From Escherichia coli (GTDB lineage: Bacteria > Pseudomonadota > Gammaproteobacteria > Enterobacterales > Enterobacteriaceae): a stretch of 64,000 nucleotides of DNA. Of this stretch, positions 1 to 38,430 are shown piece after piece. Position numbers and translations under genes: made by a program. Each line of letters opens with the position of its first letter. The stretch's first letter is position 1. The notes under the pieces are model-generated. The model worked only from the letters and a program-made list of their open reading frames with translations. It was not told where the DNA came from and did no database searches. The stretch lies in assembly GCF_041886205.1 (NCBI RefSeq), contig NZ_CP169029.1. The stretch is one strand, 5' to 3'.

Positions 1-710
1 CTGATTAGCCACTGCACGGTTACGGTCTGCATATTCACCGGGCCAGTAACCCGCACCTTTTCGGGGAGGGATAAGCGCGCTGATTTTCTTACGCCGCAGT
101 TCATCGTGACATAGCCGGGTATCGTAAGCGCCATCGGCGGCGGCTGACCTGATTTTCCGGTGGGTTTGCCGGATTAACCCGGGGAAGGCCTCTGAGTCCG
201 TAACGTTGTTCAGCGACAGGTCAGCGCAGATGATTTCATGTGTTTTACTGTCAACGGCGAGATGCAGCTTACGCCAGATACGGCGGCGTTCCTGGCCATG
301 CTTTTTGACTTTCCACTCGCCTTCACCGAAGACCTTCAGCCCGGTGGAATCAATTACCAGGTGTGCGATTTCACCCCGGGTGGGCGTTTTGAAACTGACA
401 TTAACCGACTTTGCCCGCCTGCTGACACAGCTGTAATCCGGGCAGCGTAGCGGAACGTTCATCAGAGAAAAAATGGAATCAATAAAGCCCTGCGCAGCGC
501 GCAGGGTCAGCCTGAATACGCGTTTAATGACCAGCACAGTCGTGATGGCAAGGTCAGAATAGCGCTGAGGTCTGCCTCGTGAAGAAGGTGTTGCTGACTC
601 ATACCAGGCCTGAATAGCTTCATCATCCAGCCAGAAAGTTATGGAGCCACGGTTGATGAGGGCTTTATTGTAGGTGGGCCAGTTGGTGATTTTGAACTTT
701 TGCTTTGCCA
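1..710 (-). CDS. IS903-family transposase, 3' end truncated by window edge (GTG start at 710)
   Basis: Minus-strand translation VAKQKFKITNWPTYNKALINRGS...DGAYDTRLCHDELRRKKISALIPPRKGAGYWPGEYADRNRAVANQ matches IS903 transposase as recalled; not in ORF track because it runs off the window. Confidence 0.8.
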
Positions 711-788
711 CGGAACGGTCTGCGTTGTCGGGAAGATACGTGATCTGATCCTTCAACTCAGCAAAAGTTCGATTTATTCAACAAAGCC
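1..788 (-). mobile_element. IS903-like insertion sequence (IS5 family), one end only; continues beyond window start
   Basis: Terminal inverted repeat GGCTTTGTTGAATAAATCGAACTTTTGCTGAG read on minus strand at 757-788; transposase ORF immediately inside. Confidence 0.8.
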
Positions 789-843
789 GTGCTTTGGCTG
801 AGGAACAGCATTAAATTCAACCATTTTATTCATAGGGATTAAA

Positions 844-18194: not shown

Positions 18195-18812
18195 TTACGC
18201 GTTAAGAAGGGTCAGGACGCGTTCACGCGCCATACGTTGATTAATGGCTTTCTGTAGCGCGCCGCTGTTGCGCGCCTCCTGCCATGCTTTCATGGAGCGA
18301 ACAGCCGAGTCAGCCTCCTGATAGGCAGGATATGTCACAGGACTGACATCCAGCAGACGGGAAAAGCGGGTTATCTCGCGAATAACAACCCCGTCCTCAT
18401 CCTGATACCACTCCTCGCCGTCACGGGCGACACGGAAAGCAAAAGATGACTGGTTAATATCTCCACGTTGCATCGGGGCCAGCACCAGATCACGAATGGT
18501 CTGTGTCTCCGGAGCCTGGATGTCATAGCGCAATCCGCGCTCATCAACTGAAAGATTCAGCGTGCCTGCTGCACTACGCCCAAGAATAAAATTAGGATCG
18601 TGGTTAAACAGTGCGCGTACATCATCACCAAGCACATCGTCAAAAGCGCCGGGCCGGATGATTTCGCGGAATGAACCGAATATCAGCTCAGAACGACAGT
18701 CAAACACCGATCCATAACCGATAATGTGCGCCGGGTTATCGTCATGCCGCTCAGCACGCACCTCACCGCTGTAACAACGGATTTCACGGTCATTCATTGG
18801 TTTTTCCCTCAT
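18195..18812 (-). CDS. Prohead protease (HK97 family)
   Basis: 205 aa between portal and capsid. Confidence 0.75.
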   Translation of the reverse strand: MREKPMNDREIRCYSGEVRAERHDDNPAHIIGYGSVFDCRSELIFGSFREIIRPGAFDDVLGDDVRALFNHDPNFILGRSAAGTLNLSVDERGLRYDIQAPETQTIRDLVLAPMQRGDINQSSFAFRVARDGEEWYQDEDGVVIREITRFSRLLDVSPVTYPAYQEADSAVRSMKAWQEARNSGALQKAINQRMARERVLTLLNA

Positions 18813-20064
18813 CGTTTTTTGGGGGCTTAAAATCTCCTGCCGGGTTAGCAGCGTTCACGCTTACCAGCATCTCATCCAGCCCTTCAACCGGATTCATATC
18901 CTCGAATGCGCGGGCCTCATTACGGCTCATCCATCCATCGGTAATAGCGAAGTGATAGAATTGCGCGCGCTCCTGCGGAGTTCCGCGTAAAAGCCCCGTC
19001 AGATTGAACCTGACGTAATACCCGGCGGCTAACTCAGCGCGGGTAAACAAGCGACGGTTAAGCTCCTGCTCCCAGTTCGTCACCCACGGCATCATCGTGT
19101 AGCGGACAAACTGAATCGCCTGCGCAGAAATATTGGAGAAGGTGGCTTTTTCGAGGTCATTAATCATGTGCGCAGGAATATTGAAAATACCGGCAATCAT
19201 TGAACGGTTCAGTTTCATCATGTCAATGATCTGAGCGTCAACTGGCGACACAGTCAGTGCCTTGTAATCCAGATCGGCTGGCAGCAGCATGGTTTTGTTT
19301 TCCTGGCGGCGTAACGCCTGCGATGCCTTCTGCCACTGATCTTTAAGCCAGCCCCAGCTTTCCTTATTGAGTCCGCTTTTAACGGATACTATCCCCGCCG
19401 GACGGGCATTACCGCTGAAGAAGCTTTCTGTGTACTTCTGACCGCTCATCCCCATGCCTATTGTTTCGGCATGTTGCATAATCGGACTCAGCCCCATCTT
19501 CTGATTATTACCCAGCGCACGGATGTGGATCATATCGTCCGGACTGATCGCAAACGCCCCATATTCGTTGTACAAACCGTAGGTATATCGGCCACCAGTA
19601 TTCATCAGCGTCGTTTCCCACGGCATACAGCAATCCAGGGATATGACTTCACCGCGACGATTACGTTTCACCCAGGTATACCCATTCCCCCAGCCAAGGA
19701 TGTGACGTTGCTTCAGTTCGCGCCATTTGTAGCTGGTTTGCCAGGTATTGGGCTCATCATGAACCAGATAAAACGCCGGATGATCGCGTGCGGGTTCAAC
19801 CTTCCCCTTGTGCCTGCGCATAACATGCAACGGCATCTGGGCAAGGCTGGAAGACAGGACATAGATACAGGAATACACCGCAGCCAGTTTCATCGCAGTC
19901 TCAGGACTGACATAAACGTCTGCCCGGAACAGCCCATCAGTATCAACGGCATCACCGGTTATCGGGGTGGAAGGATTCTCCAGTGATTTACTTCTGAACA
20001 GAGCATCAAGCAGCACGCGTCCCCCTTCTGGCCATAGCCAGTGCGCCCACCAGCAGTAAAGCAC
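18790..20064 (-). CDS. Portal protein
   Basis: 424 aa after terminase large subunit. Confidence 0.8.
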   Translation of the reverse strand: MLYCWWAHWLWPEGGRVLLDALFRSKSLENPSTPITGDAVDTDGLFRADVYVSPETAMKLAAVYSCIYVLSSSLAQMPLHVMRRHKGKVEPARDHPAFYLVHDEPNTWQTSYKWRELKQRHILGWGNGYTWVKRNRRGEVISLDCCMPWETTLMNTGGRYTYGLYNEYGAFAISPDDMIHIRALGNNQKMGLSPIMQHAETIGMGMSGQKYTESFFSGNARPAGIVSVKSGLNKESWGWLKDQWQKASQALRRQENKTMLLPADLDYKALTVSPVDAQIIDMMKLNRSMIAGIFNIPAHMINDLEKATFSNISAQAIQFVRYTMMPWVTNWEQELNRRLFTRAELAAGYYVRFNLTGLLRGTPQERAQFYHFAITDGWMSRNEARAFEDMNPVEGLDEMLVSVNAANPAGDFKPPKNDEGKTNE

Positions 20065-20167
20065 CGGACAAAATCAGAGCCGGAGCCATACCAAACTGCA
20101 GGTAAACCCCGCACGTAAGCAGGCCAAAACCAGCCAGCCCGATAACATCAGCAATTAGTGATTTCAT
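20006..20167 (-). CDS. Small hydrophobic protein (53 aa) overlapping terminase stop and portal start
   Basis: ATGA overlap with terminase stop; [53 protein letters not shown]; below ORF-track length cutoff. Confidence 0.3.
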
Positions 20168-21897
20168 AGAATTAAGAGATCATCGTCCGGATCAAGAGAT
20201 GAGAGGAAATCGTCAGGTTCTTTGAGCATTGCCCGACCGATCGTCATAATCAGTGCAACCGCACCATCGATTTTGTTTTCCGCCTGCTCCTTGACGGGCT
20301 TCACTAAATCATCGTTACCTGGCATGTTTTTGCCGACCACATTACCGATACACCAGGTCATGATGGGATTGCCGTCATGATGAAAGCGTCCCGATTCAAT
20401 CGCTGCTTCCAGCTCTTTCATCGGATCGGACATATTGGCGAAGTTCTGGACGATAGTGACGGGATTCAGATCTTCATCAGCAAGGTCATGTGACAGCCCG
20501 GTCGCCCCGAAGGGGTCGATGGGTGACTCACTGACCGGGCTGATTTTGTTCGCCGCTTTGGCCTCCTCGAGGATGTAGCGATAATCCACCTCTGCACCAT
20601 CGGTAACGGTCAGGACGCCCATTTCCACCCATTTCTGAAAGCGTTCGGCTGTCCGTCTATCTTCATTTTTCTCGACGCTGTACACCGTGTCATACGGTAC
20701 CCAGAAGCGCGGGGCCACACTGTAGTAATGCGTTTTACCGTCAATCTCGCGGGTATAAAGTCGCGCCATGCTGTTCATATCCAGCTTACGCGCCAGGTCA
20801 AAGGCCAGAATGCACGGCTGCCCCTCGAACTGCTCAAGGGTCAGTGATTTATCCTCGCAGCTCTGCCAGCTCACCAGGTTGAAATACGCCGAACGCGCCG
20901 ACACCCAGATATTGAGGTGTTTTGTTTTAAAGACGTTTGCCAGACGGGCGTTATTTTTCGCACGCTGCTGCTGACTTAACAAAAATTCGCGATAAACCGA
21001 CACGCCAATATTTGGATTGGCTTTTTCCAGCACCTGCGGGTCGGTCCAGTCGTCACCTTCATCAACGGTATAGATGATCCCGAACAGTTCATCGTTAGGC
21101 ACCGAGCCGTTGAGCATCTCGATGACTTCCCGCCGCTTGTCGTAGCACGGCCCCTCAATGTTGTACCCGGCGGTGGTGATGGCCCACATCAGTGGCTGAC
21201 GTCGCGCCCCCATCCCTGTAAGCATTGTGGTATAAAGCGCATCGGTGGCGTGCTCGTGATATTCATCAACCACGGCACAGTGGGGTGATGAACCATCACC
21301 GGGATTGCCGATCAGCGGTTCAAACCGCGCGCCATCCTCCGGACGGTTCATGTTTGAGGCGTTAACCTCAATCCCGAACGCTTCCGTCAGCATGGGTGTG
21401 CGTTTACACATCAGTCGCGCCGGGCGAAAGACTTCCCACGCCTGTTTCTCTGTCGTGGCACCGGAATACACTTCCGCGCCAAACTCGTTATCACAGGCAA
21501 AACAATACAGGGCAACACCGGCAGAGATTGCTGATTTGCCGTTCTTACGGGGGATTTCGGTGTACACCTCCCGGAAGCGGCGCAACCGGGTGCCTTTATT
21601 GACCCAGCCAAACGCACAGCAGATCACAAATAGCTGCCACGGCTCCAGCGTGATGGGCATCCGTTTGAATGCCCACTCCCCCTTGGTGTGCGGCAACAGC
21701 TGAATAAATTTCGCAGCCCGTTCAGCCAGGTCCTTATCGAAGCGGTAACGAAACGACTTACTTTTTTCCGCCATCAGGTCATCAAGATGGCGCTGGCAGG
21801 CCTGAATCACAAACTGGCAGGCAACAATCTTTCCGCGCACGACATCCCGGGCATACTGATTGGCAGCATTTACGTTGGGGTAAGATTTCCGGCTCAT
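20164..21897 (-). CDS. Terminase large subunit
   Basis: 577 aa; ATPase/nuclease size, follows small subunit with overlapping stop/start. Confidence 0.85.
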
Positions 21898-22397
21898 GAC
21901 TCGATGATTTTCAGAAACGGGTTAGTGGCTTTCTTCTGCCCCGCCAGGCCAATCAGACGCTGGCGGCTGCTGGGGTCGAGTCCGAGCATTGCCCCCGTGC
22001 TGCTCATCTCGGACTCCTGTTCTTTCTTGGCGGTCAGCTCCGGGTTTTTGACCCTGCCGCCCATTGCACCGGTAATGGTGTTGCCCTGGCTGGCAATATT
22101 TTTCACGGCACGTCGCCAGAACTCATAGGCCACGCACCACCGCTCAAGCACCGCGAGGTCAGTCACGCACAGCAGGCCCTGACCGCAGAGTTCTTTGGTT
22201 GTCAGTTGCCACATGATCGTGGCGAGAGGGAGATCTTCTTCAGCGAACCATTCCGGTGGCTCAACACCTTTGATGGGCGTAAAAACAGGTTCATCTTTAT
22301 TCAGGGCTCGCTTGCCGGGGTTTCCGGCCAGCGCCTTGCGCGCCGTTGGCTTGGGGCGACGCCCGGAACGCCCCGCCGTTCCAGCCATATGCGGCAC
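21894..22397 (-). CDS. Terminase small subunit (P27-like)
   Basis: 167 aa basic N-terminus; precedes large subunit. Confidence 0.7.
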
Positions 22398-22514
22398 TCC
22401 TGGTTAAATTTCATTTTTCGCGGGTATAAAAAAACGATGGGGCGGGCAGTCCGGAAGACGTCAGGTCACAGGGATTTGACCCGCCCCTCCCTCACAGACA
22501 GTTGAGAATTATTA
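22398..22514. other. Candidate cos/packaging-site region between HNH and terminase genes
   Basis: GC-rich inverted repeat ggggcgggc...gacccgcccc; HNH-terminase systems usually place cos here. Confidence 0.3.
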
Positions 22515-22865
22515 TCACTTTAACCGTTCACGGGCCGTCTTCGCCTTATGGCAGGGCCAGCACAGACTCTGCAGATTACTGTCGGCATCAGTGCCGCCAT
22601 GCGCTTTAGGGATGATGTGGTCAACGGTTTTCGCCTCGCGCACCACACCAGCACGCAAACACAACTGACACAGGCCTTTGTCACGCTTCAGTACTCGCAC
22701 CCGGATACCGTCCCACTTCGAACCATAACCACGCTGATGGCGGGACTGGCCCGACTTGTATTGCTTCCAGCCCTCGCTTTTGTGGCTTTCGCAGTAGCCT
22801 GACGGGTCAGTCGTGGTATTGCGGCAGCCGCGAACACGGCAGGCTTTTGGGATTCGAGGAGGCAT
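22515..22865 (-). CDS. HNH endonuclease (terminase-associated)
   Basis: 116 aa with CxxC...CxxC and HxxxH motifs (GCRNTT...CESH; CQLC...HIIPKAHGG...CWPCH). Confidence 0.8.
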   Translation of the reverse strand: MPPRIPKACRVRGCRNTTTDPSGYCESHKSEGWKQYKSGQSRHQRGYGSKWDGIRVRVLKRDKGLCQLCLRAGVVREAKTVDHIIPKAHGGTDADSNLQSLCWPCHKAKTARERLK

Positions 22866-22891
22866 AAATATATTCCTGTTCTTTGTCCAGA

Positions 22892-23164
22892 CTATTTGCC
22901 TGCTGCCAGCAAAGCGTTACGGCGCATCTCGATACTTCGAATTCCCGCTTTGTCAATATTGCATTGTCCCAACGCTGACAACAGACTCACATTCAACTCC
23001 AGACTGGCACCATACGTCAGCGGATTGGGTATAAACGGTACAGGAGTATCAGAAGTCAGGCTGGCTGGCAGTGGTGCCACCGGAACGCTCACGTAAACCG
23101 TTCGCGAATTTCCGCAACCGGTCAGCAGCGGCAGCAGGCACAGGACGTGAAGCACAATCATCAT
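22892..23164 (-). CDS. Rz1-like o-spanin lipoprotein (overlapping Rz in another frame)
   Basis: Internal start MMIVLHVLCLLPLLTGC gives lipobox LLTGC; overlaps 3' part of Rz. Confidence 0.55.
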   Translation of the reverse strand: MMIVLHVLCLLPLLTGCGNSRTVYVSVPVAPLPASLTSDTPVPFIPNPLTYGASLELNVSLLSALGQCNIDKAGIRSIEMRRNALLAAGK

Positions 23165-25959: not shown

Positions 25960-26955
25960 TTACGCCAGTACGCCTATTGCCAGCGCACGATCGATAAAAC
26001 GAAATATCAGCTCCAGCTGGGAGCCATACTTCTCTTCAAATGCCACGGTATCCGCATGCAGCTCGTCGTGATGCTTTCTGCACAAAGGCAACACAAAGAG
26101 GTCATGCGCTTTTGTTCCCATTCCACCCTGACCGTGACCTATCAGGTGGTGGGGATCATCAGCAGGCTTTCCACAACATGCACACGGCTGTGTCTTAACC
26201 CAGCGCGTGTACTTTTCATTAACCCAGCGGCGACGTTTTGGGCGTAACATAAAAGACTCCGGCGACTCCGGATCCACTTTCAGCGCCAGCACCTTTTTCG
26301 CTTTATCCTGGATAATGCTGGTGGCAGGAACCGAAGGCACAAGGTCACTTTCCCGGGTGACAGACGGCACAACAGGTTTCGGTAATCTCAGTGCCTTACG
26401 GGCTGCGCTTTCAGGTAAGGCATCCGCCAGGTCATTACGAATCAGCCACCAGCACAGTTCCGGCATTGTCACGGCATGGTTATCATCAAAACCGAGATCC
26501 CGACGGACTACAGACAACACCCAACGGGCACAGTTATCCGTTGCCATTGATTCCAGCCGCTCCGTGAACTGATCACGTAACTGATTATCGCAGTGCCAGC
26601 ACAAACGGATTGCTCCCGGCGCGTGACGCATTGTGGTCATGTTCTCGCTGTGCCAGTCGGAATGAGGCCACTGGCAGCCTTTTTCACGAAGTAACCAGCT
26701 TTCAAGACATTCCACGCCACCAGCACGACGGATCACTGCCTCATTGCGGAACACGGCCCGAACGGCAGGATCATCCGCCAGCGGTTGTGATGCCGCCGGA
26801 ACGGCACCACTGGCGAAAGATGAATAACGCTCCGGCTCAGGCTCCAGCAGGACACGCCCCTGCATAAACAGGGGCATCAGCTCTGAACCTGGCCTGAACA
26901 ATACGATCCCCATACGCGGGGCAATTTCAGGGGTCAGTAGTGCTCTCACGGTCAC
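25960..26955 (-). CDS. DUF968-like phage protein
   Basis: 331 aa; C-terminal Cys/His-rich region; sits next to Q as in some E. coli lambdoid prophages (recalled). Confidence 0.45.
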   Translation of the reverse strand: MTVRALLTPEIAPRMGIVLFRPGSELMPLFMQGRVLLEPEPERYSSFASGAVPAASQPLADDPAVRAVFRNEAVIRRAGGVECLESWLLREKGCQWPHSDWHSENMTTMRHAPGAIRLCWHCDNQLRDQFTERLESMATDNCARWVLSVVRRDLGFDDNHAVTMPELCWWLIRNDLADALPESAARKALRLPKPVVPSVTRESDLVPSVPATSIIQDKAKKVLALKVDPESPESFMLRPKRRRWVNEKYTRWVKTQPCACCGKPADDPHHLIGHGQGGMGTKAHDLFVLPLCRKHHDELHADTVAFEEKYGSQLELIFRFIDRALAIGVLA

Positions 26956-28498: not shown

Positions 28499-28992
28499 TA
28501 CGCCCCCACGTAATTCCCTGACAGATACCACTCATCACTCGATACAGCGCGCTTGCTGCTTTTCCGTAAACACTGCTCACGACGCGCCAGAAAATTGTTT
28601 CGTTCTGGCTGGGAGTGGCTTTCACGGAATGCCGCCATCCACACCGTTGCAGCACGACGGTATAAGCCCCTGGACTCCAGTTCTTCAGCCTGGCGGGTCA
28701 GGCACAAAATCTCCCGCGGGTCGTTAGTGCCGACATAGAAATTGCGCACAGGTCTGGTTTCACGAACTGGTTGCGGTTCTGCCTCCTGCGCTCTCTCAGT
28801 CAGGCGCGGGAAATGTCTGCGTGTATCCCCTTCACAACGGTGAGCCACACGACCACTCTGACGTAACTTGCTTGCTGACTGCAGAACGCGCTGCCGTGAG
28901 TAACCTGCAAAAGCATCCGCAATGTCTCTGGAAGTACACCCCGGATGGGCTTCAATGTATTTCTGAACTTCATTCAAAAGACTCATGATCAC
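28498..28992 (-). CDS. Winged-helix + PerC-like C-terminal domain protein (possible transcription regulator)
   Basis: 164 aa; C-terminal AEELESRGLYRRAATVWMAAF resembles PerC-family motif as recalled. Confidence 0.35.
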   Translation of the reverse strand: MIMSLLNEVQKYIEAHPGCTSRDIADAFAGYSRQRVLQSASKLRQSGRVAHRCEGDTRRHFPRLTERAQEAEPQPVRETRPVRNFYVGTNDPREILCLTRQAEELESRGLYRRAATVWMAAFRESHSQPERNNFLARREQCLRKSSKRAVSSDEWYLSGNYVGA

Positions 28993-29990
28993 CCCCTGAA
29001 TCCTGCTGGGATCTGGCTGTAGTCCACGTTGTCGTAACTGGCTTTGAAGTACGGGTCTTCGCGTTTTTCTGTGTACGTGCTGACGGACGGCGATAAGCGC
29101 AGGGAAAGCTCATCCCATTTTTCCCGCAGCTTCGACGGGCTGAGCACGTTACGGCACCAGAACGGATCGCGGCTGACGCGGCTGTACATCTCGCAGATTT
29201 GTTTGTGAGTACGACCATCCTGCACACACATCAGGCGAATTTCGTTTGCCCAGGCTGTCCAGTTCGGTTCTTTGGGACGAACCACCTCGCCGTCACATTC
29301 GGCAGCCTGCTCGTACAGGGCGATGATTTTTTTCCAGAGCCACTGTGCGCAGGTCAAATCATCCTGCGTCCCCCACTGGCGCTTTTTAGGGCTGAATACA
29401 ACCGCATCAGGATGGCGAGTTAAAAAATCCTGTTCAGCCGTCTGCGTGTCCGGTTGCGAAGAGTCCGGACGAGAAGGTTTTTTATCTGACGGATCATGTT
29501 TTGATTTTACTGACGGATCCCCGCCAGATTCTGACGGGTGAAAACCCGCTTTTTTGCCAGATTTCGACGCATCAAATTTTGACGGGTCAGATTTTGATGC
29601 GTCAGATTTTGACGGGTCAGATTTTGATGCGTCAGATTTTGACGGGTCAGATTTTGATGCGTCAGATTTTGACGGGTCAGAATCTGACAGTTGAGAAAAT
29701 GCCGCTGCCTGAAGCTTCGCAACGTTAAGCTGATAAACATTCGACGCATTGCGGTTACCCTGGCGACGCGCCTTACGCGTTAACCAGCCTTCTGCTTCCA
29801 GCCGTGCGATAGCCGTTCTGACGGTACTCATCCCCGCGCCAATCTGGCGTGCAATGGTTTCAATTGATGGCCAACACACACCTTCGTCATTACTGAAATC
29901 AGCCAGGCGGGCCATAATTGCCACGCTGGATAGCTTCATGCCTGACGCAGCGCAACCATCCCATACATAGCCGGTTAATTTAGTGCTCAT
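28989..29990 (-). CDS. Replication initiator-like protein with internal iterons
   Basis: 333 aa; N-terminal HTH-like segment; central (DASKSDPSKS)n repeat encoded by tandem DNA repeats. Confidence 0.55.
   Translation of the reverse strand: MSTKLTGYVWDGCAASGMKLSSVAIMARLADFSNDEGVCWPSIETIARQIGAGMSTVRTAIARLEAEGWLTRKARRQGNRNASNVYQLNVAKLQAAAFSQLSDSDPSKSDASKSDPSKSDASKSDPSKSDASKSDPSKFDASKSGKKAGFHPSESGGDPSVKSKHDPSDKKPSRPDSSQPDTQTAEQDFLTRHPDAVVFSPKKRQWGTQDDLTCAQWLWKKIIALYEQAAECDGEVVRPKEPNWTAWANEIRLMCVQDGRTHKQICEMYSRVSRDPFWCRNVLSPSKLREKWDELSLRLSPSVSTYTEKREDPYFKASYDNVDYSQIPAGFRG
29521..29690. repeat. Tandem direct repeats (30-bp unit x3 perfect plus degenerate flanking copies): candidate replication origin iterons
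   Basis: gacgggtcagattttgatgcgtcagatttt repeated at 29581-29670, partial copies either side. Confidence 0.65.
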
Positions 29991-37356: not shown

Positions 37357-37388
37357 TGAATAAACCCATCCAAAGATGGGTTTATTCA
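37357..37388. terminator. Bidirectional hairpin terminator between convergent genes
   Basis: tgaataaacccatc-caaa-gatgggtttattca, 14-bp perfect stem. Confidence 0.6.
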
Positions 37389-37852
37389 TAATGTTGAAGA
37401 GCAGCGAGTATCAGTTTTTTATGCCGTTTAACCATAGTTTTAGATATCTCAACTGCACATCGAACTTGTCTCATACAATGATCTGTAATGCGACCTTTTA
37501 GCACGTCACCATATTGGATGGCTATTTTCTCTTTAATAATTTCAAGATCGAAAGCAGCATGAGCCTCAATGCAATTAACAAATGAGTCCCATTTAAGAAA
37601 ATCATGGTCCTCTCTATTAATTTCGACCTGACAAGCCATAAGATCATTGTTTCTCTTAATAAATTCATTTATATCTGAATTTATTAGAAGAACTAAAAGA
37701 GGTTCACAGCAAACAACCACCATATATTTTACTTTAGGTGGGGTCGTAAAATCACAATGAAGATACAATACATCACCGGGTGATATACCTCTTTCACGAC
37801 TAAAATTAGCCTTAAAATCAGGAGGGAAACAATCACCCAGCATAAGTATCAA
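37382..37852 (-). CDS. Unknown 156-aa protein, downstream partner of Panacea-domain gene (candidate toxin/effector)
   Basis: 4-nt overlap with upstream gene; no recognisable family by eye; no predicted TM helix. Confidence 0.4.
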   Translation of the reverse strand: MILMLGDCFPPDFKANFSRERGISPGDVLYLHCDFTTPPKVKYMVVVCCEPLLVLLINSDINEFIKRNNDLMACQVEINREDHDFLKWDSFVNCIEAHAAFDLEIIKEKIAIQYGDVLKGRITDHCMRQVRCAVEISKTMVKRHKKLILAALQHYE

Positions 37853-38430
37853 TATCCGTTCTTCAGATAATCCAGTATTAATTTGCTATTTTTTAGCTGT
37901 GCAACTATCGATTCCAAAGACATCTCACCATTGTGATCTGCCTGTTCCCATGCCGCGTCATGGCTCATGGTTCTGATAGCTTCAAAGGACATGTTTCCAA
38001 GCATCGCGATAGACTTATCAATACACTCTAAATCTGAGTCACTAAAAAAGTCTTCATCAGCTTCACGGCTCGGCACAATCGTCATACCTGATACAGAAAA
38101 TGCTTTTCGCACAGAATCGACATCACAACCATTAGGAATGTAACGTCCATCTCCACGAGCAATTTTTATAATATCGTATGTGTTGCTTGCTACAGGCCCA
38201 TCCTTCATAGCGTTATAGTGATCGCCCGTTATGAGGCGTCCAAAACTTTCAAGGTGAAACCTGTCAGCATAATAAAGAATTTTTCCGACATGATAGATAT
38301 CTGGGATCGGTGCTTTAGAGGCGACGTACAGAATGGCCTCTAAAGCCTTTTCTGAATCAAACCTTACATTTAGCATCAATACACCCTTCATCCAAACAAC
38401 ATCGTCAAGCTCTGGCAAATGCAACCGCAT
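37849..38430 (-). CDS. Panacea/DUF4065 (SocA-like antitoxin) domain protein; true start may be internal Met
   Basis: Segment ALEAILYVASK...VGKILYYADRFHLESFGRLITGDHYNAMKDGPVASNTY fits the Panacea signature (LQKLLYYAQ...GPV) as recalled. Confidence 0.55.
   Translation of the reverse strand: MRLHLPELDDVVWMKGVLMLNVRFDSEKALEAILYVASKAPIPDIYHVGKILYYADRFHLESFGRLITGDHYNAMKDGPVASNTYDIIKIARGDGRYIPNGCDVDSVRKAFSVSGMTIVPSREADEDFFSDSDLECIDKSIAMLGNMSFEAIRTMSHDAAWEQADHNGEMSLESIVAQLKNSKLILDYLKNGY

Follow-up and report, generated by a model that had tools for sequence, protein, structure and literature searches.

Probable cos site of an SfV/SfI-type prophage between the HNH endonuclease and small terminase genes in Escherichia coli

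The window considered here (that is, the whole stretch of DNA that was analysed, 64,000 nucleotides from Escherichia coli contig NZ_CP169029.1) includes, on its minus strand, a run of phage genes that leads from the lysis functions through an HNH endonuclease into the terminase and portal genes. The HNH gene (22515..22865, minus strand; 116 aa; Pfam HNH PF01844, E = 2.2e-16) is the last of the late operon before the site described below, and upstream of it lie the genes for Rz1/LysC, Rz, a family-19 glycoside hydrolase endolysin and holins. The original prediction, that a 116-aa HNH protein with paired CxxC and H-N-H motifs immediately precedes the small terminase, is borne out by the open reading frame, by the PF01844 match and by the motifs themselves (C66-x2-C69, C102-x2-C105, H83, N97 and H106), none of which varies when the protein is aligned with six homologues. 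What that prediction did not mention is an N-terminal segment resembling a zinc ribbon (C9-x4-C14 ... C25-x2-H28); the protein has a [CxxC]2 HNH core with an extra N-terminal zinc ribbon, the combination by which zinc-ribbon HNH nickases are recognised (Xu & Gupta 2013). It is 95.7% identical to SfV orf53 (about 95-96% to the SfV and SfI proteins generally), aligns over its full length (residues 1-114) with the HNH endonuclease of phage GVE2 in structure 5h0m (E = 3.9e-13), and shares 38% identity over 65 aa with HK97 gp74.

Beyond the gap, and on the same strand, comes the small terminase TerS of the P27 family (21894..22388; 164 aa from an ATG at 22388; Terminase_4, E = 1.1e-20), which passes the curated cut-offs both of TIGR01558 (73.8 bits against 45.6) and of PF05119 (74.3 bits against 24.7) and is 98% identical to TerS of SfV and SfI. 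It is followed by the large terminase TerL (20164..21897, minus strand; 577 aa), with ATPase and nuclease domains (Pfam TerL_ATPase and TerL_nuclease; 26% identity to HK97 gp2 over 520 aa, E = 1.7e-30), and by a portal protein of HK97 type (18790..20064, minus strand; Pfam Phage_portal, E = 3.3e-98; E = 4e-43 against HK97 gp3). The proposal that this is an HNH protein of the kind associated with packaging fits well with this company, namely a P27 TerS, a TerL matching PF03354/PF20441 and an HK97-type portal, in an order that is the same in HK97. A module of this composition, with the portal matching PF04860 and with an HK97-family protease and capsid annotated in the closely related PigCaeca_1 prophage (see below), corresponds to what is reportedly a recognised class, the HNH-dependent cos packaging module of HK97 type after Kala et al. 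2014.

The size of the gap between the two genes depends on which TerS start is chosen. A gap of 117 bp (22398-22514), as first described, is obtained if TerS is taken as the longest open reading frame, with a GTG at 22397; the start given in the RefSeq, SfV and SfI records is the ATG at 22388, which is preceded by AGGAG, and with this annotated start the gap is 126 bp.

The evidence that bears most directly on the function of this gap comes from phage SfI. Its virion ends were sequenced directly and compared with the prophage, and ten nucleotides, 5'-TGCCCGCCCC-3', were found to be absent from the virion reads; the DNA was linear by restriction analysis, and the authors concluded that packaging uses cos sites and is not of the headful type (PMC3636060). 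The SfI record ends in ...GGACTGCCCGCCCC and starts with GTCGTTTTTTT, and the junction so formed falls exactly at the corresponding site of the window, which on the phage strand reads ...CCGGAC TGCCCGCCCC ATCGTTTTTTT... and in which the cohesive end occupies 22439..22448 (minus strand). This cos pattern has a single match in the 64-kb window, and the SfI primer cos-R, GGCTTGGGGCGACGCCCGGA, matches exactly at 22348-22367. A family comparison was made of 76 sequences including that of the window (48 of them distinct over a 161-nt segment, the relatives being 92-97% identical), and GGACTGCCCGC is invariant in the 48 distinct relatives. From the SfI ends, the bottom-strand nick would lie at 22448/22449 and the top-strand nick at 22439/22438.

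The ends of HK97, which are known to be 10-nt 3' overhangs (PMC9410871), point to the same place. Once the ends of the HK97 record had been verified against published numbering (T16, C:G at 21 and a 9-bp A-tract from 23; PMC11331095), its junction could be aligned with the window without gaps, whereupon the last ten bases, CGCCGCCAAA, fall on TGCCCGCCCC; the GAC just before the cohesive end is common to both, and upstream a G-run and TCAAATC occupy the same columns. The mapped ends of SfI and the ungapped alignment of HK97 therefore place cos in the gap between the HNH gene and terS, where the original prediction had put it, with the SfI-mapped end unchanged at 22439-22448; for the window the cohesive ends are read across from SfI, which at about 98% identity is nearly the same sequence. 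As to the polarity of the overhangs, the decamer is absent from both run-off reads, so that both 5' ends must be recessed, and we infer from this that the overhangs of the SfV/SfI family are 3'.

Some care is needed with the SfV record itself (U82619.2), position 1 of which corresponds to window position 22455, that is, 7 nt upstream of the nick mapped in SfI, so that the deposited SfV "ends" differ from the experimentally mapped cos of the family. The packaging mechanism of SfV was described by the SfI authors as "postulated" (PMC3636060), and SfI is for this reason regarded here as the only member of the family with mapped ends.

The wider comparison leaves little room for doubt as to the kind of phage concerned. 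Over window positions 21800-23000 the DNA shares 97.5-98% identity with four serotype-converting phages of Shigella flexneri, SfV, SfI, SfII and SfIV, an identity that extends across terS and cos within the packaging and structural module and is of the level expected within the SfV/SfI group, and 95% identity with Escherichia phage vB_EcoM-720R4. The cohesive end TGCCCGCCCC with its flanks, the lysis genes and the combination of a Mu-like tail with an HK97-like head module are all shared with the Sf phages, from which the window differs in its host (E. coli), in integration at dusA (the Shigella phages use proA/yaiC), in the cargo of the early region and in single bases around the cut, +1 (counted from the first base downstream of the cohesive end) being A in the window but G in SfI, and TCAAATCC in the window standing in place of TCAAATCT. 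Phages of the group carry genes for O-antigen modification (gtr) beside int/attP; neither gtr nor int appeared among the window proteins scanned, in a scan that was not directed at either. From this region, a stretch of 491 bases is present in 1299 of 5426 complete E. coli genomes, in which RefSeq labels the two genes "HNH endonuclease" and "phage terminase small subunit P27 family"; three genomes are identical over all 491 bases, among them that carrying the PigCaeca_1 prophage. The late region of this prophage looks complete (Mu-like tail, HK97-family protease, capsid, portal, terminase, HNH, lysis genes and antiterminator), and it is 98.5% identical to the window across the 22.7 kb of the structural module. 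On all these comparisons, the segment 22389-22514 (minus strand) very probably contains cos of a temperate phage of SfV/SfI type that has integrated into the E. coli chromosome.

Whether that site is still in use is a separate matter. The prophage adjoins a dusA fragment and the yjbM-zur-dinF genes. Between the dusA fragment and the early region (a PrtN-like gene and a 3'-5' exonuclease) lies a toxin-antitoxin pair, consisting of a gene for a Panacea/SocA-domain antitoxin (37382-38430, minus strand) and a partner open reading frame at about 38500; PigCaeca_1 has a YafO toxin system at the same place. At the left edge of the window, positions 1-790 (minus strand) carry a fragment of an IS903/IS5-family-like transposase (recognised by eye from the translation), the frame of which runs off that edge, and in the E. 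coli genomes that match best these positions and the neighbouring prophage DNA do not adjoin one another. Elsewhere in the prophage, a DUF968 protein of the Nin/Q region (25960-26955, minus strand) gives a weak HNHc_6 match (26.9 bits against a Pfam cut-off of 26.6), and an open reading frame of the replication region (28989-29990, minus strand) encodes a tandem repeat of the peptide DPSKSDASKS, the underlying repetitive DNA (about 29500-29750) also opening long reading frames in other frames.

No integrase was found in the 64-kb window, and this, with the IS-type fragment at its left edge, means that the prophage may be defective and not inducible. One could accordingly suppose that cos, the HNH gene and the terminase are all intact but never used, the site being a relic, and the toxin-antitoxin pair beside the dusA fragment, at the end of the early region, could be counted on the same side. 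Such a reading seems unlikely, though not negligible. Every packaging open reading frame is of full length, and the 78-nt core from the G-rich box described below to +27 is the commonest variant in the family comparison (30 of the 76 sequences, the window counted); the close match of the structural module to PigCaeca_1, given above, likewise speaks against it. Moreover, the left boundary of the prophage probably lies outside the window, so that the integrase may simply be out of view.

The gap also contains a GC-rich inverted repeat, which had been put forward as the mark of cos. The repeat itself is exact, GGGGCGGG (22439-22446) and CCCGCCCC (22480-22487) being complementary at 8 of 8 positions with the arms 33 nt apart, and no other 8-nt inverted repeat made up entirely of G and C occurs in the 64-kb window. 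However, a perfect repeat of at least 8 nt arises in 6.6% of 5000 dinucleotide-preserving shuffles of the gap, so that taken by itself the repeat is only suggestive, and such meaning as it has comes from comparison with other phages. That comparison splits the claim in two: one arm does indeed lie within the cohesive end (the downstream arm, 22439-22446), but the pairing structure is not conserved in the relatives. The upstream arm, 22480-22487, is the G8 part of a longer G-rich box. Support for the pairing of the arms by covariation was looked for and rejected, the changes being non-compensatory in the 76 sequences compared and in distant phages. The two arms are better seen as separate conserved elements, each of which happens to be G/C-rich.

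The same observations bear on a different reading, according to which the repeat together with the ATCG-T7 that follows it is an intrinsic terminator, or some other RNA hairpin, that ends the lysis/HNH transcript and is no packaging signal at all. Seven T residues do begin 4 nt after the stem on the phage strand, and the RNA folds with a 10-bp outer stem at -28.3 kcal/mol. This fold is not exceptional for its composition, however (z = -1.41, with 20 of 200 shuffles folding equally well); the loop is 33 nt long, a terminator consensus scan calls no terminator here, and Rfam yields just two far-sub-threshold chance matches. Comparison with relatives also tells against the hairpin, in that HK97 has no such complementarity and the Klebsiella and Vibrio relatives have only a weak one, even though the box and the cut site are kept, and within the family the variants of the box (GGGG-AGG) and of the overhang (CCTC) do not compensate one another. 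In addition, the head genes are reached only if late transcription crosses cos. A terminator is for these reasons improbable, and the gap is better read as a cos site with a conserved element upstream of it.

This upstream element, which will be called the G-box, is GGGGCGGGTCAAA on the phage strand (22475..22487, minus strand), with its start 39 nt ahead of the bottom-strand nick. Aligned without gaps, the box keeps this offset in SfV and SfI, in Klebsiella, Vibrio and Burkholderia phages, in HK97 and in Bacillus phage z1a (Wbeta-like), the record of which runs ...GGGGCGGGTCAAAAAAC...CCCGTAC up to its boundary and begins with CGCCGCCCCC. The distance from the end of the HNH gene to the box is some 270 bp in HK97 as against 30 bp in the window, so that the fixed relation of the box is to the cut and not to the gene. 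To see how widely the element occurs, viral contigs were scanned with the 14-mer GGGGCGGGTCAAAA, a variant of the box ending in AAAA that excludes the window's own family; this gave at least 121 occurrences in at least 120 stretches, and the counts that follow are all among the matches listed. An HNH gene lies no more than 900 nt upstream on the same strand at 73 of the 121 listed occurrences, compared with none on the opposite strand upstream, one downstream on the same strand and none downstream on the opposite strand. A P27-type TerS is found downstream at 60, and one or both of HNH and P27 TerS at 84, of the same 121. The HNH proteins at the listed sites are 27-72% identical to that of the window (median 40%). 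In the 57 distinct HNH-linked contexts listed, 54 have AC^YR (the caret here and below marking a nick) at an offset of 37-40, with a decamer of 77% G+C after it and a T-rich stretch beyond that. No description of the G-box string in a phage was found among the matches listed in the searchable literature, most of the key papers lying outside that search.

For proteins resembling the HNH endonuclease of the window, a part in packaging is on record in two phages: HK97 gp74 stimulates cos cleavage by terminase (PMC9410871; PMC11331095), and a packaging-linked HNH protein is essential in the lactococcal Skunavirus sk1 (PMC12967558). For the SfV family the assignment is by analogy with gp74 and with sk1 HrdP, and the authors of the SfIV study guessed instead at a role in the timing of lysis (PMC3851460). 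That the gene is a free-standing, selfish homing endonuclease which sits beside the terminase by chance and has no part in packaging is, despite this guess and despite the label "homing endonuclease" borne by its homologue in several phage records, very improbable indeed, given that over 1000 phage records contain a homologue, in most cases with no further gene between it and cos and terS, that the gene is kept beside the P27 TerS in the 1299 E. coli genomes, that an HNH gene lies upstream on the same strand at 73 of the 121 listed G-box sites, as against none on the opposite strand and one downstream, and that gp74 and HrdP have demonstrated packaging roles.

On the other side of the cut, the segment from +1 to +50 (22389..22438, minus strand) consists of the T7 tract, ATACCCGCGAAAAATGAAATTTAAC and the TerS ribosome-binding site, and is a candidate recognition region for the small terminase, comparable to cosB. 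An indication in this direction comes from mosaic relatives, in which the downstream half of cos follows TerS and not the HNH gene. In Klebsiella phage ST101-KPC2phi6.3, TerS is 87% identical to that of the window, and the sequence between about +5 and the start codon is common to both. The upstream half of cos and the HNH protein (86% identical) of ST101-KPC2phi6.3 resemble instead those of Klebsiella phage Kp4873-4, in which the downstream half and TerS (72%) in turn match Vibrio phage Pm34. The mosaic junction in ST101-KPC2phi6.3 is thus at or beside the cos cut. This pattern fits a TerS site downstream of the cut, but physical linkage alone could give the same pattern. In HK97, TerS binds 15 bp at +15 to +29 and TerL stalls there, the site including an A/T tract (PMC11331095). 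The TerS of HK97 is not detectably related to the P27 TerS, so that any transfer of the position of the binding site is by analogy only. A likeness between the HK97 TerS site, ACCCGATTTTTT (+18 to +29), and ACCCGCGAAAAA (+14 to +25) of the window was set aside and not used, the two TerS proteins being unrelated.

How cleavage might proceed can be pieced together from these parts, by comparison with better-known phages. Late in infection, the P27 TerS would recognise concatemeric DNA by binding the T-tract and the ACCCGCGAAAAA region (about +5 to +45), and TerL together with the 116-aa HNH protein would make two nicks 10 nt apart to yield 10-nt 3' cohesive ends of sequence TGCCCGCCCC, the bottom-strand nick lying at 5'-GGGCA^GTCC-3' (on the plus strand of the window, 22448/22449) and the top-strand nick at 22439/22438 (CCCC^ATCG). 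Packaging would then run rightwards from terS until the next cos. The G-box, 31 nt upstream of the nick, would help to position the cleavage complex, as cosQ does in lambda, a role that is suggested by analogy.

For HK97 a division of labour has been proposed in which TerL may cut one strand and gp74 the other (PMC11331095; PMC9410871). In the present case the bottom-strand nick would most likely be made by the HNH protein and the top-strand nick by TerL. CG^GT, or equivalently AC^CG, is where the zinc-ribbon HNH enzymes from phages of Bacillus and Geobacillus nick (PMC3592412), and the bottom-strand nick is CG^GTC in HK97, in the Klebsiella phages and in Pm34, and CA^GTC in the window and in a Burkholderia phage, so that the CA^GT of the window is one base off the CG^GT measured for the Bacillus enzymes. 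It is this nicking specificity, together with the full-length alignment to 5h0m, that favours the HNH protein for the bottom strand. The assignment of strands is tentative, however, in that the purified packaging HNH proteins HK97 gp74 and sk1 HrdP cut non-specifically in vitro (PMC12967558).

Set beside the systems on which this scheme draws, the locus shows both likenesses and differences. It shares with HK97 the order HNH - cos - terS - terL - portal, a TerL and a portal of the same Pfam families, a 10-nt GC-rich cohesive end following GAC, a G-box with TCAAATC at the same offset and an A/T tract downstream. However, HK97 gp74 has neither the zinc ribbon at its N terminus nor the second CxxC, and the HK97 TerS has no Pfam match and does not belong to the P27 family; the overhang, CGCCGCCAAA, is also different. 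The N-terminal CxxxxC...CxxH ribbon links the HNH protein instead to N.phiGamma and to the HNHE of GVE2 (5h0m), and genes of this type adjoin cos and terminase genes (PMC3592412). The CG^GT site of the Bacillus and Geobacillus nickases coincides with the cos nick in HK97, the Klebsiella phages and Pm34 and with the boundary of the z1a record; the window differs from these enzymes in the context of the nick (CA^GT), and nicking by its own HNH protein is a prediction. As for lambda, whose cos comprises cosQ, cosN and cosB, the points in common are a staggered site-specific cut, a TerS site downstream and a possible cosQ-like element upstream, but the 12-nt 5' overhangs of lambda are made by gpA alone, with no HNH protein and by an unrelated terminase family, as opposed to the 10-nt 3' overhangs deduced for the window.

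A more speculative suggestion, which we advance tentatively and would at present sooner doubt than rely upon, is that HNH-dependent cos sites share a deep, position-fixed layout that extends from E. coli prophages and HK97 to Wbeta-like phages of Bacillus. Such a layout may consist of the G-box GGGGCGGGTCAAA, then, some 31 nt along, the nick at AC^CG in the bottom strand, an overhang that is GC-rich and about 10 nt long, and a T-rich segment specific to the type of TerS. The nick would then reflect the intrinsic CG^GT specificity of the zinc-ribbon HNH nickases, which would give the bottom-strand cut to the HNH protein and that of the top strand to TerL, and the G-box would be a cosQ-like element read by the conserved pair of TerL and HNH protein and not by TerS.

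In itself the locus, with the cos and the HNH-terminase module of a prophage of SfV/SfI type, is ordinary, already known and routinely annotated, and the G-box/AC^CG layout is the only part that might repay more work. For E. coli, the result is that the packaging origin is fixed for a very common type of prophage, the annotation of its HNH and P27 small terminase genes being sound; the exact position of cos, 22439-22448, lets the ends of induced virion DNA be predicted, and it also helps to pick out satellites or plasmids with the same cos, which could be mobilised. If the shared layout were true, the G-box and AC^CG could together provide a simple sequence rule for finding cos in the genomes of uncultivated phages, and a testable assignment of each strand to the nuclease that cuts it.
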